Shown here: piece after piece, positions 3,173 through 56,592 of the stretch
Numbering within the stretch: position 1 is the stretch's first letter
Layout of the letters: each line of letters begins with the position of its first letter
Origin: Thiohalomonas denitrificans
Lineage (GTDB): Bacteria > Pseudomonadota > Gammaproteobacteria > Thiohalomonadales > Thiohalomonadaceae
Direction of reading: 5' to 3'
NCBI RefSeq assembly: GCF_016841685.1
Contig: NZ_JAENYR010000010.1
Coordinates: 3,000-66,999 of the forward strand
DNA: 64,000 nucleotides
Translations under genes and position numbers: made by a program
The notes under the pieces: generated by a model
The model's database searches: none
Told to the model about the DNA's origin: nothing
What the model saw: only the letters and a program-made list of their open reading frames with translations

Positions 3173-3226
3173 TGGTTCGCAATCGAGCCTGGAGGGAAGC
3201 GCGCCAGCTATACTCGGAGTAAATCA

Positions 3227-3517: not shown

Positions 3518-3561
3518 TATGTGTTCCCTACGGACTAAATGATTGGCGAAAGGAATCTTCC

Positions 3562-5715: not shown

Positions 5716-5764
5716 CGGCTTTACTGCCCCTAGGCCATTAACCATTGTCCAATAATCGACAGTC

Positions 5765-6022
5765 TTAAGGCTTGTCCGGCAGGGTAACGTTCAGCTCCAG
5801 CACCTCATAGTCCCCCTCCTGCTCGAGGTGGACCTGGACTTGTTCCTGGTCGACGGGGATGTACTTGCGGATCACTTCCAATACCTCCCGCTGCATGGCC
5901 GGGAGAAACTCATAGCGACTGTTGCGTTCGCCCCGCTGATGGGCGATCACGACCTGCAGCCGCTCTTTGGCCAGCTTGGCACTGCTGGGTTTCGTTTCGC
6001 GAAAGTAGCTGATTAGACTCAT
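5765..6022 (-). CDS. minE: Cell division topological specificity factor MinE
   Basis: SAKLAKERLQVVIAHQR, LPAMQREVLEVIRKY and LELNVTLP motifs. Confidence 0.97.
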   Translation of the reverse strand: MSLISYFRETKPSSAKLAKERLQVVIAHQRGERNSRYEFLPAMQREVLEVIRKYIPVDQEQVQVHLEQEGDYEVLELNVTLPDKP

Positions 6023-6030
6023 TATTCACC

Positions 6031-6840: not shown

Positions 6841-6980
6841 TGCGCTCTCCCCGTGTTGCTCGCAATAGTGGTCAGTTAGGTCGGGCCTGTCGCCTGACAA
6901 GACGGCCGACACGAATGCTTCCCCGCTCCCCTGGGCCTCCCTTTGCTGGCGTCTACCTTTCGCTGGGCGTACAAGGCATC

Positions 6981-7661: not shown

Positions 7662-8097
7662 AGTTCGCTAATGTCGCTTCGAAACCAATCCGACCATTAT
7701 ACCGGCCCGAGATACCCATGTGGGAACAGCGATTGTATCGCAATCGACGGAGGGCACCATGCAGAATAGCCACAATCGGAGTACCGATTGCTCATGGGAA
7801 AGAGGGGGGCGAGCTGAAGAGAAACCGGAAGGACGGGACACGTGACGCCTCTGGTTTCCGGGGTCAGAGGATACCGTACGATCTCGCCAACCTGATTTAG
7901 CCGGATATCAGCAAGAGCCGTGTAAGCGATAGGGAAGTGATCACCATAACATACCCGGGCGTTTATCCCCTGAATAATGAGAGGCGTGCGGCATGTCTCG
8001 AACGTCGTCAGGCAAGCTATCTTCCGCCTGTGCTAGCTGGAAGTCCCCTGCTGCGATTTGTATGGAAAACAGTCACATAACAGAAGAACCCGACTAG

Positions 8098-8297
8098 GAG
8101 CTTGTCCGAGAATAGCGACCGTCACGAGGGCAAGACGGATTGAGTGGGATTTTTCGGTCATTGGAGACGAATACGACTGCATGGACGCAGTCGTTAGAGC
8201 GACGCATGCCGCCATGGATGGCGGTAGTAGAGAGTGTCTGGAACCTATTCTCGATGATGCCCGAGCCGAGTAGGTCAGCCTATTCTCGGACAGGCTC
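8098..8297. mobile_element. 200-bp MITE with IS5-like ends and CTAG target duplication
   Basis: 18-bp terminal inverted repeats GAGCTTGTCCGAGAATAG / CTATTCTCGGACAGGCTC (17/18 match), flanked by CTAG at 8094-8097 and 8298-8301; no transposase. Confidence 0.75.
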
Positions 8298-8338
8298 CTA
8301 GAGAGGTTTGCCTGTGCTAAAAGCGATCAAAAATTCCT

Positions 8339-8363
8339 GGAACTTTTATGTCTGTAGTGCGTT
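8339..8363 (+). promoter_or_regulatory. Putative autoregulatory ECF-sigma promoter (GGAAC-N16-CGTT)
   Basis: GGAAC at 8339-8343, 16-nt spacer, CGTT at 8360-8363, immediately ahead of the ECF gene; same motif at 10267. Confidence 0.6.
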
Positions 8364-9008
8364 ATGACAATAAATGATTACGGAGTACGGCTAAAGGTGT
8401 CTGTTTTATCGATCGCCCCGATCCTGAGCGGCCTGGGCAGGTCCAAACGGAGGGATTTTCGCGAACTTCGGGACGAAGAGTGCGCCGAAAGGTCGGGGGC
8501 CGGGGATAACGACGCTTTCGCCGAACTCGTGCGACGCTATCAGAACCGCGTCTTTCGTTACCTGAAACGGATGGTTGGTTCCGAGGAGGAGGCCCGTGAC
8601 CTTACCCAGGAGACCTTTTTGCGAGTCTACAAAGCGCTGCCGAAATGGAATGAACAGGCCCTGTTCCGATCCTGGTTGTTTCGAATCGCGAGCAATGCTG
8701 CGATCGATGAATTACGCCGCCGCCAGGACCATCGGCCGCTGTCACTCAATGGCCTCGACGAACCGGTGTCACAACAACCGACCGTTGAACACATCCACTA
8801 CGCTGAAGAACGCTATCTGTTTCTTGAGAAAGCACTCATCCGAATATCAGAGATTTACCGCCAGCCCCTGCTTTTGCGAGAGCTTGAGGGGATGACCTAC
8901 TCGGAGATAGGCAAGTTGTTGGATTTGACCGAAGGTACTGTAAAATCTCGCATTGCCCGCGCACGTGCGAAGCTGTGTGAACTATTCCGAAACTGCGGAT
9001 ATTGTTGA
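8364..9008 (+). CDS. ECF-family RNA polymerase sigma-70 factor
   Basis: Region 2 (GDNDAFAELVRRYQ, DLTQETFLRVY, FRSWLFRIASN) and region 4.2 (TYSEIGKLLDLTEGTVKSRIARAR); true start may be downstream, e.g. GTG 8397. Confidence 0.93.
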   Translation: MTINDYGVRLKVSVLSIAPILSGLGRSKRRDFRELRDEECAERSGAGDNDAFAELVRRYQNRVFRYLKRMVGSEEEARDLTQETFLRVYKALPKWNEQALFRSWLFRIASNAAIDELRRRQDHRPLSLNGLDEPVSQQPTVEHIHYAEERYLFLEKALIRISEIYRQPLLLRELEGMTYSEIGKLLDLTEGTVKSRIARARAKLCELFRNCGYC

Positions 9009-9011
9009 AAG

Positions 9012-9455
9012 ATGGATTTTTGCCCAAAAATAGAGATGCTTTCCGCATACGTCGACGGGGAGCTATCTTCAGCCGCAATGTTCGCGTTGGATGAACACGT
9101 GGCCAACTGCGCCCGCTGTCGGGAGACGGTTTCCGCGATCCACCTGCTTGGTTCGGCAGTTAACGAGGATGGCGCGCCGCCGGTGGATTTGGTACCGGAA
9201 ATCATGGAACGGATTAAATGCGAGCGAGATGTTGTTGAAGTGATGGGGATGGGCTGGCGTCGATGGAGCCCGATTTCCTTGTCTGCGGCAGCCGGGATCA
9301 TGCTGGCGATTGGGGTACTACTCGGCCATGGTGTTTTTTACCATTCGGCATCTTCGACCGATCCACTAGTTGGCAGAATGTGGGCCTTTGATCTGATTCC
9401 GCCTGGCGGAGTGTGCATTCACAACAACGCTTGCTTCGGGGTGCGCGCCAAATGA
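9012..9455 (+). CDS. Zinc-binding anti-sigma factor (zf-HC2) with one TM helix
   Basis: LSAYVDGEL...HVANCARC (HxxxCxxC), hydrophobic segment SLSAAAGIMLAIGVLLG; 3 bp after the sigma stop. Confidence 0.88.
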   Translation: MDFCPKIEMLSAYVDGELSSAAMFALDEHVANCARCRETVSAIHLLGSAVNEDGAPPVDLVPEIMERIKCERDVVEVMGMGWRRWSPISLSAAAGIMLAIGVLLGHGVFYHSASSTDPLVGRMWAFDLIPPGGVCIHNNACFGVRAK

Positions 9456-9934
9456 AACGATATTGCCTGCCAACTCTGCTGATCCTTTCGCTGGCCTTGA
9501 ATGCTGGTGTTCTGGGCATGGGTGGTATCTATCTGGCCGAAAGCTGGCTCGGTCCCAAGCCGGCCCAGGGGCACACCATGCTTGTTCACTATCTTGAGTT
9601 GGACGGAGAGCAGCGCCTGATCTGGCAGGAGAAGGAAAAAGGCTTTATGGACGACCTGACCAGTGCTTGGCAACAGATCCATGGTCATCGCGAAAAAATG
9701 ATACGTGAGATATTTTCCGATTCGCCGGATCAGGAGTTGATCGAAATCCAGCGCGCGGCCATATCTCAAGTCCAGGAGCAGCAGCAAAACTACGTGATTG
9801 CGCAGATGATGGCCGAGAGGGAAATACTCGATGCGCAGCAGCGTCAGAAATTGGCTGATCTTCTGATTCAGCAAAACCCGATAGGTTCCCTCGAAGAAGT
9901 CCTCGCCGACGAGCTCCATCACCCCGACCACTGA
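9452..9934 (+). CDS. Periplasmic Spy/CpxP/CnrX-like helical sensor (heavy-metal sensor family)
   Basis: N-terminal anchor LLILSLALNAGVLG, repeated LDxxQR helices, His-rich tail DELHHPDH; ATGA overlap with the anti-sigma. Confidence 0.75.
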   Translation: MKRYCLPTLLILSLALNAGVLGMGGIYLAESWLGPKPAQGHTMLVHYLELDGEQRLIWQEKEKGFMDDLTSAWQQIHGHREKMIREIFSDSPDQELIEIQRAAISQVQEQQQNYVIAQMMAEREILDAQQRQKLADLLIQQNPIGSLEEVLADELHHPDH

Positions 9935-10172
9935 ACCGGTGCGGTAGGGTGCCGGCCCGGCCGCATCCTTGTACTGTGTTGAATCGAAGCCCCGGACCGT
10001 GACCGTTTGGTAAGTAATATTGATACTGGGCTTCTATTGGCTCGCGTTGAAAAACTCTATCGTCTGCGAATTTCGAATTAAAAACTCCCTCATCTTTTAA
10101 AGCTGGCAAGAAATGGCGGAACTCGGTTCTTGCCTTCGCGTTAAAACTCTTTTTTATGTTTTTATCATTTTA

Positions 10173-10188
10173 TTATATTGAAATATAA
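10173..10188. promoter_or_regulatory. Palindromic operator candidate TTATATT-N2-AATATAA (copy 1)
   Basis: TTATATTGAAATATAA; same arms at 34096-34111. Confidence 0.5.
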
Positions 10189-10266
10189 CTAATTAATCTT
10201 TTTATTTTATGATACTTCCGGGTAGTATTCTATTAGCTGGACAATCACGATTTTTATGAAATAAAA

Positions 10267-10291
10267 GGAACCTTCGCCCTGCATGCTCGTT
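10267..10291 (+). promoter_or_regulatory. Putative ECF-dependent promoter of the porin-cyt c'-sox cluster (GGAAC-N16-CGTT)
   Basis: GGAAC at 10267-10271, 16-nt spacer, CGTT at 10288-10291; about 100 bp upstream of the porin ATG. Confidence 0.6.
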
Positions 10292-10392
10292 TATCATAAA
10301 GATTGCGACATTTATCTAGCGTCTGATAATGACCGAGCACGCGTTTTGTGATTAACACAAGACGTGATTATTGCAAAAGGGGGGGAGGACGG

Positions 10393-11835
10393 ATGTGGAA
10401 TAAAAGTGTGCTCGCTTTGGCGGGTGGAGTGCTGTCCATGTTTTCAGTAAACGCCCATGCGGCGAACTGGATAATGATACAGGGAACTGAGCCACCAAAT
10501 TCTGAACCACGCTTCTTTGGTGCGGCTGCGTTGACCTATTCAAATTACCTGGGGTGTGATCGATTGTCCGGTATGGCCGCGCCGGACGGTACCGCGGATG
10601 GGAACCTGAACGCGGGTCCCGGGCTGAATAACGGCTACTACGTAAACAACTGTCGTGTCGGTCCGGAGCTCGAAAACAGGAATAGCGGGGTCAATTTGAA
10701 TGCCCTCGTTTTGGGATCTCGGGGACCGATCACGGATAAAACCAATTACTTTATTACTACCCAGTTCGGTTCCAATGCGGCGACCTACTTACCGATGAAT
10801 ACCGATCGTGAAAGAATCGGGACTCTTACCGATGCCAGTGTTACGTTTAACCACATCCCACGGGCTCGGCTGAAAGCGGGGCTTTTCAAGAAGCCCGGGC
10901 CGGAAGAGCTTATGCAGTCGCTCAAGAATCACAATTTCATCTACTTGACCGACTTCACGAGACGCGATCAGATCGAGCGCTTCGTCACCGGTAACGCTAA
11001 GGGCACACGACCGATTCCGGATCAGGGGACGCCTGTTACTGAAGCCTACGATGCCGACGTCGGGCGGGACTGGGGCGTTCAGCTTTTTGATGCATTCCGT
11101 ATTGCCGACTGGCAGCACACGTATGCGGTAATGGCCGGAAACGGCAATGGAATTCATCATGACGATAACAATAGTGAAAAGGATTTGAATCTATACTGGT
11201 CATCGGAAAAGGACCTTCCTGGCGGTAAAGGGCCGTATAGGCATGGAGTCAAGTTCTATGGCTATCATCAAAAAGGCATACGCAACTTCATCAAGGACGA
11301 CGGAACTTACAGCGAAAATTTTGATCGCATCAGGTACGGCGTGGGTATGAAAGCGTTGGGAAAGCTCGGCGGATACAAGCAGAGATTCGCGGTTGATCTG
11401 ATGTATGCGGACGGCATGGTACTACAATCCGCCGTGACTAGTTGCACTGACTGTCCGTACGGTGGCCAGATACAGATTGCGGCGGAAGAGGGCAACAAGG
11501 CGCGTGGGACCACGATCGATTACGGGTTCTACCTGAATAAGAAGTGGCAGTTCGACGCACGCTGGTCACGTAATAATCTGCTTTATGAGACTGCGGATAA
11601 CACGAAATGGAGTCCCTCGGATGAACGCGTCATTACCGAGTTTGCCATCGGTACCAATTATCACATCAGCCCCAAGACGCGTGTGACCCTGAACTATGTG
11701 TTTCGGGATTCGGAGGCACCCAATGCCGTGCAACATCCCGACCCGAACATAGCTGCGGTGAAGACTCAGAACGCCGAGAACGCCACATCGACGGTCGGTG
11801 ATGTGCTTGGGCTCCGGATAATGCACTTCTTTTGA
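10393..11835 (+). CDS. Outer-membrane beta-barrel / porin (OprO/P-like, uncharacterised)
   Basis: Signal peptide ending AHA, alternating beta-strand pattern, many Tyr/Phe/Trp/Asn, terminal Phe (MHFF); GGAGG RBS before ATG 10393. Confidence 0.7.
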   Translation: MWNKSVLALAGGVLSMFSVNAHAANWIMIQGTEPPNSEPRFFGAAALTYSNYLGCDRLSGMAAPDGTADGNLNAGPGLNNGYYVNNCRVGPELENRNSGVNLNALVLGSRGPITDKTNYFITTQFGSNAATYLPMNTDRERIGTLTDASVTFNHIPRARLKAGLFKKPGPEELMQSLKNHNFIYLTDFTRRDQIERFVTGNAKGTRPIPDQGTPVTEAYDADVGRDWGVQLFDAFRIADWQHTYAVMAGNGNGIHHDDNNSEKDLNLYWSSEKDLPGGKGPYRHGVKFYGYHQKGIRNFIKDDGTYSENFDRIRYGVGMKALGKLGGYKQRFAVDLMYADGMVLQSAVTSCTDCPYGGQIQIAAEEGNKARGTTIDYGFYLNKKWQFDARWSRNNLLYETADNTKWSPSDERVITEFAIGTNYHISPKTRVTLNYVFRDSEAPNAVQHPDPNIAAVKTQNAENATSTVGDVLGLRIMHFF

Positions 11836-11901: not shown

Positions 11902-12058
11902 GTAACTGCTCGCCCGGTTGATCATGCGGGGCATAGGAGATTCGTCATCCCCGCGCAGGCGAACCGTCATCCCCGCGCAGGCGGGGATCCATTTTGAGCC
12001 ATGCCGCTGCTCTCTGGATTCCCGCCTCCGCGGGAATGACGGGGGAGTGAGCAGTTAC
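11902..12058 (+). mobile_element. 157-bp MITE family B copy 1, carrying a nested REP-like palindrome
   Basis: TIR GTAACTGCTC/GAGCAGTTAC; perfect 8-bp flanking direct repeat CCCGGTAC (11894-11901, 12059-12066); 155/157 identical to 40373-40529. Confidence 0.85.
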
Positions 12059-17987: not shown

Positions 17988-18060
17988 AAGGGTGGCCTTG
18001 ATCGGCTTTGGGTCGACCGGCACACAGGACACCCTGGGGGTAGGCAGGGTAAATGCATCG

Positions 18061-18210
18061 TCACAAGCTTGGTGCATGGCGAGCGATGCAAGTGCTTGAC
18101 ATATCAGGTACGCCGTGAATACATCCCTGTAGGCTCGACGGCAGCATCCCTGCTGCCGACGACCTGATATCAAGCGCTTGCTTCACTCGCTTGAAAGTAT
18201 GGGGTTGCAC
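18061..18210 (-). repeat. Family A repeat copy 2 (internally deleted), downstream of parC
   Basis: tcacaagcttggtgc...catccctgtaggctcgacggcagcatccc...cctgatatcaagcgcttgcttcactcgc matches the reverse complement of 3227-3517. Confidence 0.8.
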
Positions 18211-30440: not shown

Positions 30441-31913
30441 TCAATCCTGGGCTTCGAGTTCAGCCTCCCGTTTGAACTGCTCCAGGCGCGCTCCGATACG
30501 GGATGCGATATAGAAGTTATTTTCCGTGTAGTTCTGGGCAGCAGTCAGCTGATCGATTGCGCTGTGAGTCTCGCCAATGCGGAAATAGTATTCTCCGAGG
30601 GCCAGCCGTGAGGCCGCTTCATGGCCAAGCGCCGCTTCGGCACGGCTGAGATGCTTGTAGGTTTCGGGAGGCGTACCAAGGCCGATGCGAATCGCCCGCT
30701 CGAATCGGTGCCGGGCTTTTTCGGGAGCGTCGGCACGAAGATGTGTCTCACCCAATGCGAGGAGAAGTTCGGGGTTGTCGGGATAGAGTTCGAGTCCGGC
30801 GTCGAGAAGCTGCGAAGCCACCTCGTAGCGCTCCGCCTCTGTTTCCAACCGGGCCAGTTCGGTTCGATAGGCGATGCGTTCGGGTGCCTCTCCCACGAAC
30901 GACATCAGGATCCCTCTGGCAGCCTCGATATCGCCGCTCGCTCTGAGGGCCAGCGCGAGGGCGAAACGGTCGGCCTTTTGGTTGGTCGATCGCCCGGAAT
31001 CCAGACGAGAGCGCAACCGACGGGCGAGTTCAGCCGGATCTTTCGATAAGCGGACCTCAAGTTTGGCCCTGGTGGTCCAGTAGTCGGATTGCGGCCGGCT
31101 CGAAGTATCGGGAAAGGCACGGGCACGCCCTTCGGCATCCGCGATGCGGGCCTGGTTGACCGGGTGGGTTTGGAGAAACTCCGGCGCACCGCTGCCGTAG
31201 TATCGGCTCTTTTCCTCCAGCTTCCGGAAAAATCCGGCCATGCTCTGCGGGTCGTAACCGGCGGCTGCAAGGGTATCGATGCCGAGACGATCCGCCTCTT
31301 TTTCGTGGGCACGGGTAAAATCCAGCTGCATCTGGGCCGCACCGGCGGTGGTGGCTGCGATGGTCGCCTCCGCCAGTTGTGGATTCTGGGCGCCGAGCAA
31401 AATCGCCGCGACCACCGCGGCCGTCATCGGCAGATTCATGCGATTGGCCTTTTCGAAGCCGCGCGCTAGATGGTTCTGTGTGACATGGGCAATTTCATGG
31501 GCCAGAACCGCTGCCACTTCATCCTCGTTTCGAGTAGCGGTTATCAAACCCGCATGGATCCCGATATAGCCGCCCGGCATGGCGAAGGCATTGATGGAGG
31601 GTGCATCCACCAGGAAAAAGGTGAACTCGCGGGGTCCGTATTCGCCGGCCGCCAATAGTCGGTAACCGAGCGATCGCACATAGCCGGCGAGCTCCGGAGT
31701 GTCGATAATTTTCCCCGCCTGGTACAGCTGCCGCCACATCGCCTTTCCGATGCGCTGCTCTCTTTCCGGCGTCAGAACGGAGGCGGAGGCATCGCCCATA
31801 TCCGGCAGTGAGGAGGCCTCCACCATCGGGAGGGTGGGGGAGAGCGAAAGTGCCGTGCTCAGGGCAACAACAGCTGCAAGTCTCTTGTGTCGGGCGAATC
31901 CGGGTAGGTGCAT
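30441..31913 (-). CDS. bepA: M48 metalloprotease/chaperone with TPRs (BepA/YfgC-like)
   Basis: LPDMG, INAFAMPGG, VLAHEIAHV, HEKEADRLG and FLQTHP motifs plus TPR C-terminus. Confidence 0.88.
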   Translation of the reverse strand: MHLPGFARHKRLAAVVALSTALSLSPTLPMVEASSLPDMGDASASVLTPEREQRIGKAMWRQLYQAGKIIDTPELAGYVRSLGYRLLAAGEYGPREFTFFLVDAPSINAFAMPGGYIGIHAGLITATRNEDEVAAVLAHEIAHVTQNHLARGFEKANRMNLPMTAAVVAAILLGAQNPQLAEATIAATTAGAAQMQLDFTRAHEKEADRLGIDTLAAAGYDPQSMAGFFRKLEEKSRYYGSGAPEFLQTHPVNQARIADAEGRARAFPDTSSRPQSDYWTTRAKLEVRLSKDPAELARRLRSRLDSGRSTNQKADRFALALALRASGDIEAARGILMSFVGEAPERIAYRTELARLETEAERYEVASQLLDAGLELYPDNPELLLALGETHLRADAPEKARHRFERAIRIGLGTPPETYKHLSRAEAALGHEAASRLALGEYYFRIGETHSAIDQLTAAQNYTENNFYIASRIGARLEQFKREAELEAQD

Positions 31914-31971
31914 CGGCTCGGTTGTCTGAATACTCGGTTATTGGGTATTTGACGGCACCCCCCCTTCGGCA

Positions 31972-32108
31972 GGTAACCGCCTACTTTCGAGCGAGCGGTG
32001 TCGGTCCTGATATCAGGTCGGCGGCCGCACGACTGCATGCATGCAGAAGGTAGAACAAAGCAGGAGCAGTTGTCGAGGGCGCGGTGGACGTCGAGCACAC
32101 AGGGATGT
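31972..32108 (+). repeat. Family A repeat copy 3 (truncated)
   Basis: ggtaaccgc...gcgagcg...tgatatcaggtcg...cacgactgcatg...ggtagaacaa...gtcgag...acagggatg matches copy 1. Confidence 0.7.
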
Positions 32109-32258
32109 TTACAGCCTACTTGGTGTCAGGGCCACTTCTACTAGTCCAGCACAGATTCTGCAGGGGTAACCAGCTCGCCGACACGGAACCTATGAGTATG
32201 CGTTCTCCCTGCTCTTGCAGGTCGGCTACTTTGAATCCTGGCAAATTGTTTATAAATT

Positions 32259-32276
32259 TATTAGCATTCGCTAATA
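32259..32276. promoter_or_regulatory. 7-4-7 inverted repeat upstream of rhd
   Basis: TATTAGC-ATTC-GCTAATA, 20 bp before the rhodanese ATG. Confidence 0.45.
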
Positions 32277-32296
32277 GAGTCGTAATCGGAGGCTGC

Positions 32297-32617
32297 ATGT
32301 TTAACTTCAAGGAAATCGACGCCCACCAATTGGACCAAATGCTGAATGACGATGGCCTGCAGGTCAAACTGATTGATGTCCGAAGCCCAATGGAGATTGC
32401 TCAGGGAGCTATCCCCGGTGCGGAGCACATCCCCTTGCATCTCCTGCCGGCCCAAATCGATCATATTCCTGAGGATCATCCTGTGGTATTTTATTGTCGT
32501 ACCGGTGCCCGCTCAGGGCAAGCCTGTGCCTATCTGTCCCAGTTGGGACGTGGAAACACTCTTAATCTACGCGGCGGTGTCATGGCCTGGGTGCAGGGTG
32601 GCTTGGCGGTGGCATAA
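32297..32617 (+). CDS. rhd: Single-domain rhodanese (sulfurtransferase)
   Basis: LIDVR, AIPGA and active-site loop FYCRTGARS, LRGGVMAW. Confidence 0.92.
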   Translation: MFNFKEIDAHQLDQMLNDDGLQVKLIDVRSPMEIAQGAIPGAEHIPLHLLPAQIDHIPEDHPVVFYCRTGARSGQACAYLSQLGRGNTLNLRGGVMAWVQGGLAVA

Positions 32618-32927
32618 TCACCAGCCATTGCTCAAGAGCATCGCAAGTGACCGAATTCAAACGTAAAAACTCCCTGTCCCCCGGTATTGATTAGTTATGT
32701 ACCATAAAGGGGTACTTGCTTTCGTTGCGTGCTTATCATATAAGGGAAATATTGAATTCTAACTTAGTTTCCATCCGTAGATGGGTGCGTAGTGAAAGCA
32801 TCCCAGGTGGGGCTGAATCAGGGCCTTTATGGACGGGAACCGGTTAACTACCCGGCCAAGTCTTCTGTTTCCGAGCAGACTTGGCTTTTTTCTTTTTTTT
32901 GTTGTCACCTATATAAGGAGAGAGAAA

Positions 32928-33158
32928 ATGGCGAACTTCGACCAAGAACTCGATGCTTCCGGACTGAATTGCCCGCTGCCCATCCTGCGTGCGAAAAAGA
33001 CGCTCGGTTCCATGGAAACCGGCCAGATCCTGCGTATCGTTGCCACCGATCCGGGTTCCGTAAAAGATTTCGAAGCCTTTTCCAAGCAGACCGGTAACGA
33101 GCTGATGGAGTCCGGTGAAGAGGGCGGCAAGTTCACCTTCCTGATCAAAAAGGCCTGA
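32928..33158 (+). CDS. tusA: Sulfur carrier TusA
   Basis: LDASGLNCPLPILRAKK, ATDPGSVKDF motifs. Confidence 0.96.
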   Translation: MANFDQELDASGLNCPLPILRAKKTLGSMETGQILRIVATDPGSVKDFEAFSKQTGNELMESGEEGGKFTFLIKKA

Positions 33159-33326
33159 ATCGGCCACTTACCGCAAAGCCGATGGACGGGGATGGGAGGC
33201 CGCTGCACCAGGTTCGGCTTTCAGGGAGTCTCATCGGCGCCTTCGCGGTGATCTTTTGAATCATTCCGGGTGCCATGCCCGGGAAAATCTCACACCGGGT
33301 TAATGACAACCAGGGGGGCAGTCTCT

Positions 33327-33797
33327 ATGTCGGACCAGAAAAAACTCGCCATCATCGCTACCAAGGGAACGCTGGACTGGGCATATCCGCCCTTCATCCT
33401 GGCTTCCACGGCAGCCGCACTGGGTTACGAGACCCAGATCTTCTTTACGTTCTACGGCCTCAAACTGCTGGACAAGAAGCTGGATCTTCAGGTTACCTCG
33501 TTAGGCAACCCGGGCATGCCGATGCCCATGCCTATGCCGGTGTTGGTACAGGCACTGCCAGGCATGCAGAGCATGATGACTTCGATGATGAAGCAAAAAA
33601 TGAAGTCCAAGGGCGTTGCCAGCGTTGAGGACCTGCGGGATTTATGTCTGGAGGCCGAGGTTAAAATGGTCGCCTGCCAAATGACCGTGGACCTGTTCGA
33701 GATGGATCCGAAAAACTTTATTGATGGCATTGAGTTTGGTGGCGCGGCGACGTTCTTCGAATTCGCCGGCGAATCGGATATCTGCCTCTACGTTTGA
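33327..33797 (+). CDS. dsrE2: DsrE2-like sulfur carrier
   Basis: TKGTLDWAYPPFILASTAAA, FFTFYGL, ACQMTVDLF motifs; rhd-tusA-dsrE2 context. Confidence 0.92.
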   Translation: MSDQKKLAIIATKGTLDWAYPPFILASTAAALGYETQIFFTFYGLKLLDKKLDLQVTSLGNPGMPMPMPMPVLVQALPGMQSMMTSMMKQKMKSKGVASVEDLRDLCLEAEVKMVACQMTVDLFEMDPKNFIDGIEFGGAATFFEFAGESDICLYV

Positions 33798-33850
33798 CAT
33801 CGTTATGTCATTCGCAGGCAGCCTGTCGGGCCAAGTCCGACCGGCTGCTA

Positions 33851-33877
33851 AAAACCCCGCTCCGGCGGGGTTTTTTT
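33851..33877 (+). terminator. Intrinsic terminator after dsrE2
   Basis: AAAACCCCGC-TCCG-GCGGGGTTTTTTT. Confidence 0.85.
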
Positions 33878-33888
33878 GTGTTTTCGTC

Positions 33889-34021
33889 GTAACTACTCAC
33901 CCCCTCCGTCATTCCCGCGTAGGCGGGAATCCAGAGAACAGAAGCATGGCTCAAAATGGATCCCCGCCTACGCGGGGATGACGGATTTCCTGCGTGCGCG
34001 ATCACCCGGGCGAACAGTTAC
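33889..34021 (-). mobile_element. MITE family B copy 2 (133 bp, lacks the internal duplication)
   Basis: Ends GTAACTACTC...GAACAGTTAC; inner GTCATTCCCGCG.AGGCGGGAATCC palindrome is the reverse complement of copy 1's core. Confidence 0.8.
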
Positions 34022-34095
34022 TTTTTGTTTTCTCTTTTCCCGGCTTTCATCCCTGAGTCAATGCAGGGGTGCCACATTAGTAATCTCGCAATCGC

Positions 34096-34111
34096 TTATA
34101 TTTTAATATAA
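34096..34111. promoter_or_regulatory. Palindromic operator candidate TTATATT-N2-AATATAA (copy 2)
   Basis: TTATATTTTAATATAA; about 30 bp upstream of a sigma70-like -35. Confidence 0.5.
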
Positions 34112-34142
34112 ATATTAGTAGATTCGGATTATGCAAATACGG

Positions 34143-34171
34143 TTGACAGTTTTATGTCGCCTAAATAATGT
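34143..34171 (+). promoter_or_regulatory. Sigma70-like promoter of the FadL-type gene
   Basis: TTGACA (34143-34148), 17 nt, TAATGT (34166-34171). Confidence 0.55.
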
Positions 34172-34377
34172 TACTGGCCAGTGACGGATTGCTTTTAAAG
34201 GTGATTCGTCTATAACAATAAGTAGTTGCCATAAAAAAAACGTACCAGTCGTCCGTGAAAAAGAATTTTTCAAGGAGAGAGCACATGAGCTTCCATTGCG
34301 CAGCGTCCCGCAAATCGATCATCATCACCAAGACCGTCAATAAGTCTAACTGCAAGCCCACCGTGGGGAGTGGCTAC

Positions 34378-35631
34378 ATGAAACCAACCAGGATTGCCTT
34401 GGCCGTCGCTGCCGCCGGCATGATTTCAACCCCTGCTTTTGCCACCAACGGCGATAACCTGATCGGCCTGGGTGCCCAGTCTCGTGCGCTGGGGGGTACC
34501 GGCACCGCCGCTTACTACGGCTCGGAAAATGCATTGTCCAACCCCTCGTTGTTGGCCAAGGCCCAGGGCAGCGAGTTCGCCATCGGCGGCACCCTGTTCA
34601 TGCCGGATGTTAAAGCCGAGACGAATGTTGCTAGCGCGCCTGGAACAAGTGCAAGTCAGACCAGCGACGCCGACACCAACATCATCCCCGAAGTCTCCAT
34701 GTCCCACCGCATCAACAACAACTGGACCTTCGGTATGGGGATGTACGGCACCGCCGGTATGGGTGTCGACTACCGCGATAACGGTGGTGCGCCGGATGGT
34801 ACTGGCCTGTTCAACGCCACGACCAATCTTTCGCTGATGAAGTTTGTCCCGGCCCTGGCCTATAACGACGACCGCTACGGCTTCGGCTTCGCCCCGGTCA
34901 TCCAGTACGGCGCTCTGGATATCAACTATTCAGCTGTGGGCTCACCTTTCGCTGGCACCGGTGTCTCCGATGACATCGGCTTCGGCGCCAACCTGGGTGC
35001 GCACTTCGACGTTAATCCGGGCCTGACCCTGGCGCTGGCCTATCAGTCGGCCATCGACATGGAGTATGAAGACCAGCTCACAAATGCGGCAAACGGTTTC
35101 CAGGTAGGCCCTGGTGACCCTTTTGAAACTATTACCTCTGACAATCTGGAGCAGCCGGCGGAGATCAAGCTCGGTGTGGCCTATGACGTGAACCCCAACT
35201 GGATGCTGACCGCCGATGCCAAGCAGATCCAGTGGGGCTCCGCCAAGGGCTACGAGGACTTCAACTGGGATGACCAGATGGTCTACGGGCTGGGCGCCAA
35301 GTACTCCGGCAACGGCTTCTGGGCCGGCTTCGGCTACAACCACGGCGAAGACCCGATTGAAGTGCTCGATAACTCGAGCTACTCCAATCAGGCCATCAAT
35401 CTGTTCAACAATCATTTCTTCCCGGCCATTACCGAAAGCCACTACACCTTCGGCGGCGGTTACAGCCTGAGCAAGACCACGACGCTGGAGGGCGCGTTCG
35501 TCTATGCGCCGGAGGTCGACAAGACAATCGATACGGGTTTCGTTAGCGGACAAGCTGATCCGGAAGCGACACAGCATGAAGTAAAGCATTCTCAAACGGG
35601 TATTACTGTCTCGCTGCGGATGAACTTCTGA
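34378..35631 (+). CDS. OmpP1/FadL/TodX-family outer-membrane channel
   Basis: Signal peptide ending AFA; GLGAQSRALGG...NPSLL hatch motif; beta-strands; terminal Phe. Confidence 0.88.
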   Translation: MKPTRIALAVAAAGMISTPAFATNGDNLIGLGAQSRALGGTGTAAYYGSENALSNPSLLAKAQGSEFAIGGTLFMPDVKAETNVASAPGTSASQTSDADTNIIPEVSMSHRINNNWTFGMGMYGTAGMGVDYRDNGGAPDGTGLFNATTNLSLMKFVPALAYNDDRYGFGFAPVIQYGALDINYSAVGSPFAGTGVSDDIGFGANLGAHFDVNPGLTLALAYQSAIDMEYEDQLTNAANGFQVGPGDPFETITSDNLEQPAEIKLGVAYDVNPNWMLTADAKQIQWGSAKGYEDFNWDDQMVYGLGAKYSGNGFWAGFGYNHGEDPIEVLDNSSYSNQAINLFNNHFFPAITESHYTFGGGYSLSKTTTLEGAFVYAPEVDKTIDTGFVSGQADPEATQHEVKHSQTGITVSLRMNF

Positions 35632-35731
35632 TCGGGAACGAGTAATCAACAGAGAGACGGCGTAACGGGTAACAGGTCGTCCGGCCTGTTACCCTGTTTT
35701 GGACGAAAACAATCTCAGGCTTGTGATGAAC

Positions 35732-36649
35732 ATGATGAAAAGACTTTTACTCGCCTTTGTTATGGTGGCGTTTGCCGCCACTGCGCAGGCCGCCAGCGAC
35801 CGCCTCAAACCCTTCCTGCTGTCCGAGGTAACCAGCGGTGATGTGGCGCAGGTGCTGTCATCGGTGGAGCAGAAGCTCAGTGAGGCCGGTTTTGACATTG
35901 TTGGCAGTTATTCGCCCTACGAGGGTGCGACGATTCTGGGTGTCACCTCCGATGCACTGCGCAGTGCCGCTGCGCAGTCGGAGTTTGGCGGTTACGCTGT
36001 GGTTCAGCGGGTAGCGCTGACCAGGCTGAATGGCGAGGTGCAGGTCTCCTATACCAATCCGACCTACATGTCCCATGCGTACCGCATGAACAGCGATTTG
36101 GCGGAAGTCACCGCAGCGCTGGAGCAGGCTTTGGGCAATGCCGGGGCTTTCGGTCCGGACGAAGGCCTGACGCCGGAGAAAGTGCGTAAGTACCACTACA
36201 TGTTCGGCATGCCCTATTTTGACGATGCGATTGAGCTGGCCAAACACGACAGTTACGAAGCGGCCGTGGCAGCGGTGGAGAAGAGCCTGAAGGAAACGAA
36301 AGGTACATCCCGGGCGTGGCGGGTGGACGTTCCCGGTAAGGAGGAAACGGTCTTTGGCGTGGGCATGGTCAAAGGCAAAGACGGTAACAAATACGCGGAC
36401 GACCCGTACATCATGAGCGAGATCGATTTCAAGGATCTGCGTTCCACGGCTCACCTTCCCTACGAAGTCCTGGTATCCGGCAACCGGGTGTATACCCTGC
36501 CGGCGGAGTTCCGCATTGCCATCAACTTTCCGGACCTGAAAATGATGGGCTCCAACAGCTTCATGAACATCATGGAGACCCCCGACGCGGTTCAGGAGCT
36601 CCTGACCCTGGGTGCGGGCGGCAAGGTCGAAACGGCAAGCTTCTGGTAA
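35732..36649 (+). CDS. Periplasmic uncharacterised protein, tandem DUF302-like
   Basis: Signal peptide ending AQA; two alpha/beta halves, LPYEVLVSGNRVY resembles the DUF302 motif. Confidence 0.6.
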   Translation: MMKRLLLAFVMVAFAATAQAASDRLKPFLLSEVTSGDVAQVLSSVEQKLSEAGFDIVGSYSPYEGATILGVTSDALRSAAAQSEFGGYAVVQRVALTRLNGEVQVSYTNPTYMSHAYRMNSDLAEVTAALEQALGNAGAFGPDEGLTPEKVRKYHYMFGMPYFDDAIELAKHDSYEAAVAAVEKSLKETKGTSRAWRVDVPGKEETVFGVGMVKGKDGNKYADDPYIMSEIDFKDLRSTAHLPYEVLVSGNRVYTLPAEFRIAINFPDLKMMGSNSFMNIMETPDAVQELLTLGAGGKVETASFW

Positions 36650-36832
36650 ACCGCACAGGCAAAGATGCGTACGCAGGGTGGATTGACGACAGCGTAATCC
36701 GCCGTTGCCCCAAGGATGGTGTCTTCTATACATACCTGTGCGACGAATAACTACCGGGGGGAGAACAAACAGAAGCCCGCCAAGGGCCGTGGACGTCATT
36801 AGAATGGCTCGCGGACTGGAAGTCCGACACTA

Positions 36833-36858
36833 AGGCCCCGCTTGCGGGGCTTTTCTTT
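36833..36858 (+). terminator. Probable intrinsic terminator
   Basis: AAGGCCCCGC-TT-GCGGGGCTTTTCTTTT. Confidence 0.65.
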
Positions 36859-36993
36859 TCGGCTCTTCCGCAGAATCCTCACCTATTTGCGCCTTCGAGA
36901 AGAAGCTTGGCTACCTGCTCAGTTTCAGCGAGGTGCTCATGAAGCATGGGATTACCCGAACCGTCAATCGGCGAAGAGCAGGGTAGACGCATA

Positions 36994-37245
36994 CTCACAT
37001 TTTTGGTGCCGGCGAGCGATATAGGTCTCCTTGATGGCAGGTACGCAGTGAATACGACCTACAGGGATGTAGGAAGTGAAGAGTAAGCAGGAGCTATCAT
37101 CTTTCATCCGTGCACGCTCGACGGCAGCATCCCTCGACAACGGCTCCTCGACAATAAGCTCCATGTATTGTCTACCACCGCCTTCCATGGCAGCGTACCG
37201 GCTATCAAGGACTTAGACCACTCGCTTCAAAATATGCGGTTGCCC
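36994..37245 (-). repeat. Family A repeat copy 4
   Basis: tacgacctacagggatgtaggaagtgaaga and ttgtctaccaccgccttccatg blocks are identical to the reverse complement of copy 1; ends gcggttgccc. Confidence 0.85.
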
Positions 37246-37439
37246 ACGCCGCGACGAGGCTGATTGAGTCCCTGGCGTTTTGGCGAGAGCCTATAATTTG
37301 CTCTGCACCCACAAATTCCCCTGACGAGCCCTTTTTTACGTTCGTGAAAAAAATCCCCCGATCGGGTATTCTGTACGGCTTTTCCGGCCCGGCTCGGGGC
37401 GGTCAACGGTTCTCAATATTGCCGATTCAGGGGTAGCCG

Positions 37440-38696
37440 ATGTTCAGCAGAGACATGCGCATTGCGGGATTTGACGATGAGCTTTGGAGCGCCATGGAGA
37501 AGGAAGTGGTGCGCCAGGAGGAGCATATCGAGCTGATTGCTTCCGAAAACTACACCAGCCCGCGTGTAATGGAGGCCCAGGGGTCGGTCCTGACCAACAA
37601 GTATGCGGAAGGCTACCCCGGCAAGCGCTACTACGGCGGTTGCGAGTATGTGGATGTGGCGGAGCAATTGGCCATCGATCGGGTCAAGCAGCTGTTCGGA
37701 GCCGACTACGCCAACGTCCAGCCTCACTCCGGTTCGCAGGCCAATGCCGCTGTTTACATGGCCCTGTTGCAGCCCGGCGACACCATACTCGGCATGAGCC
37801 TGGATGCCGGGGGCCACCTGACCCACGGCGCCAAGCCGAATTTCTCGGGGAAAATCTACAACGCCATTCAGTATGGTCTCAATGAAGAGAGCGGCGAGAT
37901 CGACTACCAGCAGGTGGAGCGCCTGGCCCTCGAGCACAAGCCAAAGATGATTATCGCCGGCTTCTCGGCTTACTCCCGCGTGGTCGATTGGCAGCGGTTT
38001 CGTGACATCGCCGATGAAGTCGGTGCCTGGCTGATGGTCGACATGGCCCATGTGGCGGGCCTGGTCGCCGCCGGCGTCTATCCGAGCCCGGTATCGCTCG
38101 CCGATGTAACCACCTCCACGACGCACAAAACCCTGCGCGGACCACGCGGCGGCATTATTCTCGCCAGGTCCAATCCGGAAGTCGAAAAAAAACTGAACTC
38201 GCTGGTCTTCCCCGGCACCCAGGGTGGCCCGCTGATGCACGTCATTGCCGGTAAGGCCGTGGCGTTCAAGGAAGCCCTCCAGGATGACTTCAAGACCTAT
38301 CAGCAGCAGGTGGTCAAGAACGCCCGCGCCATGGCCAAGGTCTTCATGGAACGCGGGTTCGATGTGGTCTCGGGCGGCACCGACAATCACCTGTTTCTGG
38401 TCAGCCTCGTCAAGCAGGAGTTGACCGGTAAGGACGCGGATGCCTGGCTGGGGGCAGCCAATATCACGGTGAACAAAAATGCCGTCCCCAATGACCCTCA
38501 GTCGCCCTTTGTCACCTCCGGCATCCGGCTCGGTACACCGGCCTCTACCACCCGCGGCTTTAAAGAAGCCGAATGCAGCGAGCTGGCCGGATGGATGTGC
38601 GATGTCATCGAAGGTCGGGGCCGTGAGGCCGTCATTGCCGAGACCAGGCAAAAGGTCCTGGACCTCTGCAAACGCTTCCCTGTCTACGAGCGATAG
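37440..38696 (+). CDS. glyA: Serine hydroxymethyltransferase
   Basis: [37 protein letters not shown] motifs. Confidence 0.98.
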
Positions 38697-40372: not shown

Positions 40373-40529
40373 GTAACTGTTCGCCCGGTTGATCATGCGC
40401 GGCATAGGAGATTCGTCATCCCCGCGCAGGCGAACCGTCATCCCCGCGCAGGCGGGGATCCATTTTGAGCCATGCCGCTGCTCTCTGGATTCCCGCCTCC
40501 GCGGGAATGACGGGGGAGTGAGCAGTTAC
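40373..40529 (+). mobile_element. MITE family B copy 3 (157 bp)
   Basis: Near-identical to 11902-12058; flanks CTGTATAG / CTTTATAT (6/8). Confidence 0.85.
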
Positions 40530-56269: not shown

Positions 56270-56358
56270 TCTGAAATCAGCTACCCAAGGCGCAGTGTAC
56301 GTGACCTTTGTGGAGTGGTGGTTCGACTTGTCCGGCATTGCAGGGCATAAACGCACGC

Positions 56359-56592
56359 CTACATTTTTGGTACCGGTGCGCGAACCAAGGCCTTGATAGC
56401 AGGTACGCTGTGAATACGACCTACAGGGGTGTAGGAGGTGAAGAGTATGCAGGAGCAATCATCTTTTATCCGTGGGCAGCATCCCTCGACAAGTGTGCTC
56501 CTGCATTGTCTAACACCGCCATCCCTGGCGGCGTGCTGCCGACGGCCTGCCATCAAGGACCTGCACCGCTCGTTTCAAAGTTGCGGTTGTCC
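56359..56592 (-). repeat. Family A repeat copy 6 (between panC and panD)
   Basis: acatttttggt...gaatacgacctacagggg tgtaggag gtgaagag...gcggttgtcc closely matches copy 4. Confidence 0.85.

Follow-up and report, generated by a model that had tools for sequence, protein, structure and literature searches.

A FadL-family channel gene and a gene for a cysteine-free periplasmic protein recurrently linked to Rhd-TusA-DsrE2 sulfur-relay genes: a candidate envelope module for zero-valent sulfur

The locus considered here (positions 32297-36649 of the window, i.e. of the whole 64 kb stretch of DNA from the sulfur-oxidising bacterium Thiohalomonas denitrificans that was analysed) contains five co-oriented genes on the + strand, as had been stated in a preliminary description. 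Four were identified with Pfam and NCBIfam profiles as rhd, tusA, dsrE2 and fadL; the product of the fifth, ORF5, carries a signal peptide and gave no match in a Pfam profile search. The features of the locus are:

32297-32617, + strand: rhd, single-domain rhodanese (Pfam Rhodanese, 69 bits) with active-site loop CRTGARS
32928-33158, + strand: tusA, sulfur carrier (Pfam TusA, 82 bits) with N-terminal CPLP cysteine motif
33327-33797, + strand: dsrE2 (NCBIfam SulfCarrDsrE2, 294.8 bits, cut-off 210; Pfam DrsE_2, 177 bits)
33850-33882, + strand: strong intrinsic terminator after dsrE2, 11-bp stem (33850-33875) with 6 GC pairs, then a T run
33905-33985, no strand assigned: REP-like inverted hairpin pair, arms 93% complementary
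34096-34111, no strand assigned: TTATAT-N4-ATATAA palindrome within the AT-rich stretch that precedes fadL
34143-34171, + strand: promoter-like site, TTGACA (34143-34148), 17-nt spacer, TAATGT
34378-35631, + strand: fadL, FadL/TodX-family outer-membrane channel (Pfam Toluene_X, 79.7 bits, cut-off 29.7)
35667-35694, + strand: hairpin in the fadL-ORF5 gap, with a 12-bp stem and a weak T tail
35732-36649, + strand: ORF5, 305-aa secreted protein of an uncharacterised family, with signal peptide
36832-36853, + strand: terminator after ORF5, 9-bp stem with 6 GC pairs, then a T run

The first three genes match the Rhd-TusA-DsrE2 relay of Allochromatium vinosum (Alvin_2599-2601), reportedly described by Stockdreher et al. 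in 2014, in both protein families and gene order. The catalytic cysteine motifs are present, and DsrE2, the middle segment of which is Met/Pro-rich, passes the NCBIfam equivalog cut-off, in keeping with the family found in the A. vinosum relay. To our knowledge, the latter is purely cytoplasmic or inner-membrane and has been assigned no component in the periplasm or outer membrane, whereas in the window and in many related loci dsrE2 is followed by genes for a FadL channel and ORF5.

The fadL and ORF5 genes form a transcription unit of their own, as originally proposed, and this unit is expressed in situ. The gap of 580 nt between dsrE2 and fadL holds the strong terminator, the REP-like repeat and an AT-rich segment, and the two sides are represented by separate RNA contigs in sediment metatranscriptome X2, one covering tusA-dsrE2 (32598-33992, depth 18) and others covering fadL at a depth of 6-8.5 (34255-35455, with 34255 as the first contig start on the fadL side). 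A further contig (35628-35787) bridges the fadL-ORF5 junction including its hairpin, which is possibly an attenuator or RNA stabiliser; rhd had no coverage in this metatranscriptome. An alternative in-frame ATG for fadL at 34285 is preceded by a strong Shine-Dalgarno sequence. The sigma70-like promoter ascribed to fadL holds in part: its TTGACA is perfect, but its -10 element (TAATGT) is weak and the site fell below the threshold of a consensus scan. The palindrome described as shared is likewise real but thin, with exactly two copies in 64 kb against 0.01 expected by chance, the other one (10173) preceding the porin gene that belongs to the second sox module, and no conservation upstream of fadL in relatives. 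The REP-like pair was rejected as a locus-specific operator on account of dispersed further copies in the window (at about 11973-12037 and 40444-40508); it also shows a depth excess of about 100-fold in a DNA sequencing run.

The fadL product carries a signal peptide (MKPTRIALAVAAAGMISTPAFA), contains no cysteine and shows an SNPS (NPA-like) motif in its N-terminal hatch. Its nearest solved structures are TodX (E 8.5e-21), followed by TbuX and CymD, all of which pass toluene-sized apolar molecules, and by this comparison toluene/cymene channels are its closer relatives, with E. coli FadL more distant. The Pfam family and the hatch with its NPA-like motif are shared with the monoaromatic-hydrocarbon channels TodX (Pseudomonas putida), TbuX (Ralstonia pickettii), CymD and StyE (PF03349; PDB 3BRZ/3BS0, 3BRY, 6Z34, 6Z37), and, as for TodX-type channels, small apolar molecules would be expected to pass through it by lateral diffusion. 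Identity with plasmid-borne relatives is only about 21-26%, however, and the protein belongs to a separate clade. In the phylogenetic tree it groups neither with E. coli FadL nor with StyE/TOL-type hydrocarbon channels but lies apart from both, in a clade (SH-aLRT 98) every member of which neighbours sulfur-relay (dsrE2), ORF5 or DUF302 genes, and the named holders of this clade at ≥59% identity are all sulfur-oxidising chemolithoautotrophs. Unlike the genes for TodX-type channels, fadL neighbours dsrE2, tusA and rhd as well as a gene for a dedicated periplasmic protein, and neither aromatic nor fatty-acid catabolic genes were found near it in the window or in the related loci inspected. We know of no dedicated periplasmic protein associated with hydrocarbon channels of the FadL family.

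ORF5 had been described as a tandem DUF302-like protein. Its AF2 model (pLDDT 90) matches the DUF302 structure 1q9u over 125 columns of the N-terminal half with a TM score of 0.75. The C-terminal half, predicted to be an alpha/beta domain, matched neither DUF302 nor any other PDB entry when modelled alone, and a profile comparison found no similarity between the two halves. The DUF302-like fold is thus confined to the N-terminal half, so that the earlier description is borne out by half and "tandem" is not demonstrated, and the relationship with DUF302 itself, suggested by predicted fold, should be regarded as putative; no member of the ORF5 family matches the Pfam profile of DUF302. The DUF302 family (PF03625; PDB 1Q9U, 1J3M) includes the product of a 191-aa gene located between soxA and soxB in sulfur oxidisers whose sox clusters lack SoxCD (PMC5037610, PMC5248467). 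ORF5 and this family have a VSYTNP/VSYCNP motif in common, and each is periplasmic, occurs with sulfur-oxidation clusters and has no known function. ORF5 differs in being twice as long with its unmatched second domain, and in lacking the two cysteines of short DUF302 lipoproteins. Cysteine is in fact absent throughout the aligned ORF5 family, which excludes persulfide chemistry on this protein, and hence a role as persulfide carrier, and would make the persulfide mass spectrometry suggested earlier uninformative for it. Aromatic residues and methionine make up most of the conserved positions, and no cofactor-binding motifs were detected in ORF5.

FadL, ORF5/DUF302 and DsrE2/Dsr genes are recurrently linked across lineages. 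Among loci gathered by similarity to the window's proteins, the counts of which are for that reason not an unbiased survey of genomes, a FadL-family gene (confirmed with Toluene_X) lies directly upstream of ORF5 in 48 of 80 ORF5-encoding genome loci, its most frequent context, and in 32-34 of the 42 ORF5 loci that leave room for a further gene, that FadL gene is itself immediately preceded by dsrE2, with operon-like gaps of only 50-116 nt in Betaproteobacteria. The flanks are of the type sox-M48...glyA in Thiohalomonadaceae and Sulfurivermis, dsrLJOPN-cobA-two-component system-dsrE2-FadL-ORF5-valS in Burkholderiales, and soeABC-rhd-tusA-dsrE2-FadL-valS in Thiobacillus; a groundwater MAG locus (L084) reads rhd-tusA-dsrE2-lbpA-lipS1-slpl-lipS2-FadL-ORF5'-ORF5, and about 20 Gallionellaceae genomes have ORF5 at the end of the dsr cluster (dsrLJOPN-cysG-ORF5). 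Because flanking genes differ between lineages, the FadL-ORF5-dsrE2 adjacency is not simple inherited synteny; moreover, three FadL lineages in the tree fill the slot between dsrE2 and ORF5, one of those replacing the window's type being sister to StyE/TOL hydrocarbon channels. DUF302 proteins enter the same association. In Thiomicrospira, a DUF302 lipoprotein gene precedes a FadL gene of the window's clade, and in Sulfuricurvum the same clade heads an operon FadL-DUF302 protein-ORF5 homologue, with the DUF302 protein at 30.6 bits (gathering threshold 23) and the ORF5 homologue, a lipoprotein, recognised by hhalign with 99.9% probability (E 1.5e-35). More distant FadL proteins (29-35% identity) are encoded adjacent to or within 3.5 kb of DrsE_2/TusA genes in 17 of 39 metagenome loci, where such FadL genes also stand beside DrsE_2-TusA with DsrMK-like genes; the pairing occurs on Desulfobacterota-like contigs and on sulfur-disproportionator-like ones. 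These arrangements recall the YTD cluster of sulfur disproportionators, which consists of yedE-tusA-dsrE and conserved hypothetical genes (PMC9751629). TusA and DsrE-family carriers, a marker of zero-valent sulfur metabolism, are common to that cluster and the window, although the window's locus has no YedE gene; the sulfur-disproportionator literature searched made no mention of a FadL component.

These conserved neighbourhoods strongly support the earlier proposal insofar as the outer-membrane channel and the periplasmic protein would belong functionally with the cytoplasmic Rhd-TusA-DsrE2 relay, and the fadL/ORF5 module is probably linked to dissimilatory sulfur metabolism. That it is an envelope module coupled to the relay with zero-valent sulfur as its substrate is a more tentative proposal, which we put at slightly below even chances. 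Rhd, TusA and DsrE2 represent the already known cytoplasmic relay of sulfane sulfur feeding Dsr- or sHdr-type oxidation, and the separately transcribed envelope module would be coupled to it. The TodX-like FadL would pass small uncharged hydrophobic sulfur species, most likely cyclo-S8 or neutral sulfanes, across the lipopolysaccharide barrier by lateral diffusion; such a channel suits these species rather than anionic polysulfide, which the preliminary description had included. At the periplasmic face, the cysteine-free ORF5, with its aromatic and Met-rich core, may bind the sulfur species or hand them on non-covalently, and crossing of the inner membrane towards DsrE2 and TusA would follow. 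Uptake of external or stored S0 seems favoured, although a passive channel could equally allow release.

Release is indeed the basis of one unlikely alternative, in which ORF5 would bring periplasmic S0 formed by Sox without SoxCD, by SQR or by FccAB to the channel for sulfur deposition outside the cell or as a relief valve. It draws on the same linkage evidence, passive lateral diffusion is not directional in itself, SoxXYZ(A) is encoded in the window with no soxCD seen in its examined part, and many holders of the module presumably belong to groups forming external or periplasmic sulfur. The genes linked, however, are those of cytoplasmic sulfane-sulfur consumers (DsrE2, TusA, Dsr) and not S0-forming sqr or fcc genes in the loci inspected, and the disproportionator-like contigs, from organisms that must take up S0, carry the same pairing. 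We give similarly low weight to import of a hydrophobic organic cofactor or precursor for the sulfur-oxidation machinery, with octanoate or lipoate for LbpA of the sHdr pathway as leading candidates and a hydrophobic organosulfur compound as another. Fatty-acid channels are established in the FadL family, and the octanoate/lipoate reading is allowed by one locus, that of the groundwater MAG (L084), where FadL-ORF5'-ORF5 directly follows lbpA, two radical-SAM lipoyl synthase-like genes and a lipoate-protein ligase-like gene. Most linked loci have instead soeABC, sox or Dsr-type genes and lack lbpA and lipoate genes, which are also missing near the Sulfuricurvum and Thiomicrospira loci, and the affinity of the window's FadL with toluene/cymene channels rather than E. 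coli FadL also speaks against it.

The module could also be less specific. An ordinary channel for fatty acids, hydrocarbons or membrane lipid turnover, beside an unrelated periplasmic protein and next to dsrE2 by inherited order without function, would account for the generic Pfam family, the terminator-bounded fadL unit and ORF5 relatives outside sulfur contexts, and FadL proteins of sulfur oxidisers have been assigned fatty-acid roles (PMC10487802, PMC4287430). This too appears improbable, given an adjacency kept in at least five flanking contexts across Gammaproteobacteria, Betaproteobacteria and Desulfobacterota-like contigs, the operon-like betaproteobacterial spacing, the mutual replacement of three FadL lineages in one slot, the mostly obligate autotrophy of the holders, and the catabolic genes absent nearby. 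Least probable of all, and by a clear step, is that ORF5 carries no ligand and serves as a periplasmic accessory of DsrMKJOP (a DsrJ/DsrO partner) or of outer-membrane biogenesis (a barrel chaperone or plug). At the end of the Gallionellaceae dsr clusters ORF5 stands after dsrJOPN-cysG without a neighbouring FadL gene; in other lineages it is lipid-anchored or, in bacteria whose metabolism is unknown, forms fusions with DUF3313 lipoprotein domains; and the window's FadL weakly matches NCBIfam BamG, far below cut-off. Yet ORF5 also occurs in sHdr-type and Sox-only organisms, has neither cofactor-binding motifs nor cysteines, and is most commonly paired with FadL. Against the zero-valent sulfur reading itself stand the genomes in which ORF5 is found alone, for example Ca. 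Reidiella and alphaproteobacterial loci with an integrase-like neighbour, as well as the DUF3313 fusions and the FadL lineage that is sister to StyE/TOL channels.

Coupling of the channel and ORF5 to zero-valent sulfur metabolism, as preferred here, has little precedent. We found no published description of a FadL-ORF5-dsrE2 module, the only precedent found for a sulfur role of FadL being speculation about the FadL-family protein CT2230 of Chlorobaculum tepidum, which belongs to a putative regulon repressed by sulfide (bioRxiv 10.1101/172254); it was proposed from the sharing of an operator motif within that single organism, and no linkage to DsrE2 or ORF5 was reported. Other outer-membrane candidates for elemental-sulfur uptake, none confirmed, are OprD-like porins of Sulfurimonas/Sulfurovum and Omp40/Omp44 of Acidithiobacillus (PMC10045233). 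These belong to different protein families and were proposed from expression data rather than from conserved sulfur-relay linkage, and the thiol-based activation model is inapplicable to the cysteine-free FadL and ORF5. Elemental sulfur is insoluble in water, and according to the literature its outer-membrane step is unidentified (PMC10045233, PMC13490349). Because the FadL-ORF5 pairing is found next to sulfur-oxidation genes across several classes and phyla of bacteria, it represents a testable candidate for the route of elemental sulfur across the cell envelope.

All five co-oriented genes of the preliminary description were recovered by six-frame ORF calls and profile scans:

32297-32617, + strand: rhd, Rhodanese (PF00581) 69.4 bits, active-site Cys loop FYCRTGARSG
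32928-33158, + strand: tusA, TusA (PF01206) 81.8 bits, Cys-Pro-x-Pro motif in GLNCPLPIL
33327-33797, + strand: dsrE2, NCBIfam SulfCarrDsrE2 (NF047629) 294.8 bits against a cut-off of 210, equivalog level; Pfam DrsE_2, 177 bits
33850-33875, + strand: strong intrinsic terminator with T run, 3' of dsrE2
34378-35631, + strand: fadL, Toluene_X (PF03349) 79.7 bits against a gathering score of 29.7
35732-36649, + strand: ORF5, 305 aa with a clear signal peptide

The genes rhd, tusA and dsrE2 are adjacent in the relay order of A. vinosum, and relatives with the same cassette bear dsr, soe or lbpA genes. The Toluene_X match is full-length (residues 52-458 of the long fadL ORF, profile positions 3-421 of 421), and a signal sequence cleaved between PAFA and TNGDN and an NPA-type hatch motif (ENALSNPSLL, LTNPALL in Sulfurivermis) can be read from the FadL sequence. 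ORF5 matched no family in Pfam and NCBIfam scans. Identity to Thiohalomonas denitrificans proteins is 87% for ORF5 and 77% for FadL. Upstream, the opposite strand carries a TPR-M48 peptidase gene and soxX-soxY-soxZ; glyA, nrdR and ribD lie downstream. The porin gene at 10348-11835 was ruled out as a second FadL, since it bears no similarity to FadL, and nothing in 31800-37500 reached an Rfam gathering score. A Shine-Dalgarno context, AAGGAGAGAG-N3-ATG, is common to tusA (32915-32930) and an in-frame fadL ATG (34272-34287) that sits 93 nt before the signal peptide and adds 31 residues ahead of it; the public gene call starts at this upstream ATG and gives 448 aa.

The proposal that fadL and ORF5 form a unit of their own was borne out. 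The 580-nt dsrE2-fadL gap holds a REP-like repeat followed by an AT-rich stretch, fadL is separated from ORF5 by a 12-bp hairpin whose T tail is weak, and a second terminator lies 3' of ORF5. Contigs near-identical to the window were present in a sediment metatranscriptome, their depth being a rough guide to expression only:

32598-33992: tusA-dsrE2, depth 18
34255-35455: fadL, depth 4-8.5
35628-35996: fadL-ORF5 junction and ORF5 start, depth about 4
36371-36626: ORF5, depth 4

The terminators and the contig pattern therefore define fadL-ORF5 as a separate transcription unit, and one that is expressed in nature. Read-through from dsrE2 into fadL was rejected: the contig continuation past 33992 is unlike the window even at 82% likeness, and most likely represents an assembly join through the REP repeat. 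The tusA-dsrE2 contig begins within the 3' end of rhd. Because the rhd stretch 32181-32542, like the M48 gene, had no contig coverage in the same metatranscriptome and tusA-dsrE2 reached depth 18, rhd may be transcribed separately.

The sigma70-like promoter claimed for this unit has a perfect TTGACA (34143), but its -10 is poor and a consensus scan did not call it. The shared palindrome TTATAT-N4-ATATAA indeed occurs exactly twice in the 64 kb (0.01 expected), at 34096-34111 before fadL and at 10173-10188 before the porin gene of the second (ECF-)sox module, in both cases preceding an outer-membrane protein gene and nowhere else in the window. It may be an operator shared by these two genes within this genome; as a conserved operator it was ruled out, and its regulatory role is unproven, because relatives lack it ahead of fadL. 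A perfect inverted repeat, TATTAGC-N4-GCTAATA, is found at 32259-32276, 20 nt ahead of the rhd start, with looser copies in the soxX-M48 intergenic region, at 30239 and 30354; allowing <=3 mismatches gives three matches where 0.66 are expected.

Two dispersed intergenic repeats were also noted:

33905-33985, ~11973-12037 and ~40444-40508: REP/BIME-like inverted GC-rich hairpin pair, CCGCGTAGGCGGGAAT and variants, at three intergenic sites
36960-37160, 3352-3524, 18044-18151 and 56340-56492, with a partial copy at 32173-32216: repeat of about 170 nt, copies 75-80% identical

Depth in the DNA run is ~100-fold above the surroundings for the REP-like repeat, which also yields spurious miRNA-like Rfam matches, and in ~15-fold excess for the ~170-nt repeat, which overlaps a 74-aa minus-strand ORF that is probably not a real gene. 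One full and one partial copy of the latter flank the rhd...ORF5 block in inverted orientation. A 155-nt inverted repeat around the whole block was rejected as the sign of a mobile cassette, because its downstream arm is this dispersed repeat with its further copies.

All named organisms among the best 120 FadL homologues (59-77% identity) are chemolithoautotrophs that oxidise sulfur and belong to different orders (Thiohalomonas, Sulfurivermis, Thiomicrospira, Hydrogenovibrio, Thiomicrorhabdus and Thiobacillus). In three Thiomicrospira-type genomes a gene for a 189-190-aa DUF302 lipoprotein precedes the window-type FadL. A metagenome scan added 80 further loci, which were sorted by FadL identity. 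At 59-62%, FadL again follows (rhd-tusA-)dsrE2. At 36-46%, a group that includes Sulfuricurvum (locus L093), 11 low-GC contigs with enough downstream sequence show an operon of FadL, a 316-aa DUF302 protein and an ORF5-like lipoprotein; the Sulfuricurvum DUF302 protein passes the Pfam threshold (30.6 bits against 23), and hhalign identifies the lipoprotein as a true homologue of ORF5 (probability 99.9%, E 1.5e-35, 229 columns). At 29-35%, a DrsE_2 gene (184 bits), often accompanied by TusA, lies near FadL in 17 of 39 loci, either adjoining it or with nothing but NarI/DsrM-like and CCG/DsrK-like genes in between, and a MarR gene is found upstream. The full order MarR-DrsE_2-TusA-NarI/DsrM-like-CCG/DsrK-like-FadL is seen in loci L137, L143, L145, L148, L156 and L157, a compact set that joins sulfur-relay and membrane-redox genes to an outer-membrane channel.

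For 52 FadLs a tree was computed (quick search, SH-aLRT support only), the references being E. coli FadL, StyE, a protein of TOL-plasmid type and a plasmid protein of P. aeruginosa. It placed the window FadL with those of Thiobacillus and Thiomicrospira in an 11-row clade (SH-aLRT 100), which the Sulfuricurvum proteins join in an enclosing 20-row clade (support 98). The sister of the larger clade is the dsrE2-linked metagenomic group, with an SH-aLRT of only 82; E. coli FadL and the P. aeruginosa plasmid protein fall outside these clades. By this placement, therefore, the window FadL does not group with fatty-acid or hydrocarbon transporters, the grouping that the preliminary description had named as speaking against a role in sulfur import. 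Its closest solved structures are TodX, TbuX and CymD rather than E. coli FadL. The FadLs that substitute for the window type in the same slot belong to two further lineages, one of them sister to the StyE/TOL channels. Since three FadL lineages have thus displaced each other, their phylogeny argues that the slot downstream of dsrE2 needs a TodX-like channel as such.

Every locus in this analysis was picked for its resemblance to proteins of the window. On the ORF5 side, a scan of one genome per species gave 80 loci that carry ORF5 at 51-73% identity. In 48 of them the same-strand gene immediately ahead of ORF5 belongs to the FadL family (Toluene_X), 6 being of the window type and 42 of types ~26% identical to it. 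This gene is the siroheme synthase gene cysG in 18/80, an ORF5 paralogue in three and dsrE2 itself in two. The next gene upstream of FadL is dsrE2 in 32 of the 42 loci with sequence available, and in two more of these dsrE2 is masked by over-extended ORF calls; dsrE2-FadL gaps measure 50-116 nt in Burkholderiales and Rhodocyclaceae. In all, ~62 of 82 ORF5 loci adjoin dsrE2 or dsr genes, several of the others being contigs too short to tell.

All 18 cysG loci are from Gallionellaceae (Sideroxydans, Gallionella and relatives), and these loci, with some others, share the order dsrL-dsrJ-dsrO-dsrP-dsrN-cysG-ORF5, in which ORF5 is the final gene of the dsr cluster. To our knowledge, the ORF5 homologue has gone unannotated as part of the dsr cluster in this family. 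Such dsr-cluster ORF5 genes of Sideroxydans, Gallionella and Ferrigenium have no adjoining FadL (loci L021, L031, L032, L036, L037, L040, L044, L046, L054, L057, L062, L064, L066, L069, L071, L072, L075 and L079, at about 3000-10900 in each).

Flanking context differs by lineage: sox...glyA in Thiohalomonadaceae and Sulfurivermis fontis, and dsr...two-component system...valS in a Burkholderiales MAG. Thiobacillus has soeABC-rhd-tusA-dsrE2-FadL-valS without ORF5, and Candidatus Reidiella has ORF5 alone. A groundwater MAG (locus L084) has rhd-tusA-dsrE2-lbpA-lipS-slpl-lipS-FadL-ORF5'-ORF5.

At 50% identity the ORF5 family falls into about 553 clusters, of which 132 lie at E <= 1e-30. The AlphaFold model (pLDDT 90.3, pTM 0.87) consists of two alpha/beta halves with secondary-structure elements in the same order. 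The preliminary description had proposed a tandem DUF302-like protein, and for the N-terminal half the fold agrees: the DUF302 structure 1q9u was matched by Foldseek (E 8e-4, probability 1.00) and superposes with TM 0.75 and rmsd 2.3 over 125 columns. It was the sole match at E <= 0.001, followed by 7tj1 chains at E 0.004-0.006. The C-terminal half modelled alone (pLDDT 82), however, had no PDB match better than E 0.6, and the two halves showed no profile resemblance (hhalign, E 0.17). The model is therefore read as a DUF302-like N-terminal domain joined to a second domain of undetected ancestry, the tandem not being demonstrated. At the sequence level, DUF302 (PF03625) did not match ORF5 at E <= 0.01 nor any of 34 family members at E <= 1 (hmmscan), an ORF5 profile search of PDB sequences was empty, and profile comparison gave only an 8-residue motif with the Thiomicrospira DUF302 lipoproteins and nothing significant with the Sulfuricurvum 316-aa protein; faint precomputed DUF302 matches exist for some homologues.

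Fusions to DUF3313 lipoprotein, PEGA or peptidoglycan-binding domains occur in some relatives, and the Sulfuricurvum homologues have a lipobox, which together point to a family located in the periplasm near a membrane. The ORF5-type domain stands C-terminal to a DUF3313 lipoprotein domain in the collected homologues P0248, P0250, P0254, P0255, P0257, P0258, P0277, P0315, P0327 and P0260, several of which also contain PEGA or TPR segments, except that in one case the fusion is to peptidoglycan-binding domains. The 34-member alignment has no conserved cysteine, and window ORF5 has none at all; invariant positions are mostly Tyr, Phe, Met, Pro and Gly, plus Arg93. A co-varying pair, KCSGD...IMCAP, is present in the homologues of loci L028, L029, L051, L063 and L074, absent from window ORF5, and probably forms a periplasmic disulfide. 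With no conserved cysteine, a thiol-activation model for FadL and ORF5 was rejected. A Met-rich "soft ligand or copper" idea was also dropped, Met content being unremarkable at 2.5% of window FadL and 3.5% of ORF5, with only some clade-B loops rich in Met.

Channels of the FadL family conduct hydrophobic molecules past the lipopolysaccharide layer, with lateral release into the membrane, and Rhd, TusA and DsrE2 carry sulfane sulfur towards Dsr or sHdr. The linkage suggests that the channel would admit, or let out, small neutral sulfur species, most plausibly S8, that ORF5 would bind them non-covalently, since it has no cysteine, and that the Rhd-TusA-DsrE2 relay would take over at the inner membrane. 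Anionic polysulfide, included in the import relay originally proposed, would be a poor fit to a FadL-type channel; the tie of that relay to sulfur genes is supported by neighbourhood, but its substrate and direction we infer. A functional link of fadL/ORF5 to dissimilatory sulfur metabolism thus appears probable, and zero-valent sulfur as the substrate is a tentative assignment, somewhat short of an even chance. Doubtful as a whole is the combined proposal that TodX-like FadLs and ORF5/DUF302-type partners form the envelope route that S0 (cyclo-S8 and neutral sulfanes) takes in Gram-negative bacteria oxidising or disproportionating sulfur, with S8 crossing the lipopolysaccharide through the channel, held in a hydrophobic pocket of the Cys-free partner and received by DsrE2/TusA at the inner membrane.

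Several other roles could be envisaged. The gene context of the groundwater MAG L084 would suit import by channel and ORF5 of octanoate, lipoate or another hydrophobic organosulfur compound, against which stand the many Dsr-type contexts. A generic lipid or hydrocarbon channel, its place kept by inherited gene order, is difficult to reconcile with varied flanking contexts and with the replacement of FadL lineages within the slot. Export of periplasmic S0 would draw on the same linkage evidence as import, from which it differs in direction alone. ORF5 could also be an accessory of DsrMKJOP or of the FadL barrel.

The passage of water-insoluble S0 across outer membrane and periplasm is a standing question of sulfur microbiology, and outer-membrane proteins for S0 or thiosulfate uptake have recently been called unidentified (PMC10045233, PMC13490349). 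The idea of a FadL for sulfur has a precedent, because FadL-family CT2230 of Chlorobaculum tepidum, part of a putative sulfide-repressed regulon, was speculated in a 2017 preprint to move hydrophobic sulfur chains (10.1101/172254). Boden and colleagues drew attention to a DUF302 gene within sox clusters that lack SoxCD (PMC5037610, PMC5248467). In the literature searched we found no mention of FadL together with DsrE2 and no published description of the three-part arrangement of DsrE2/Dsr, FadL and ORF5/DUF302, and two sulfur-disproportionator proteome papers mention neither FadL nor DUF302. The locus and its relatives name two candidates, a FadL/TodX-type channel and the periplasmic ORF5 family, both tied by neighbourhood to DsrE2/TusA, the dsr cluster, soeABC and sHdr accessory genes. 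If the proposed role is true, the substrate range of FadL would extend to an inorganic molecule, the DUF302-like family would be assigned a role, the first function for the DUF302 fold, FadL channels would gain their first dedicated soluble partner, and environmental genomes would offer a genomic marker for S0 use. Even if it were refuted, the outcome would explain a widely conserved, unannotated gene pair of lithoautotrophs.
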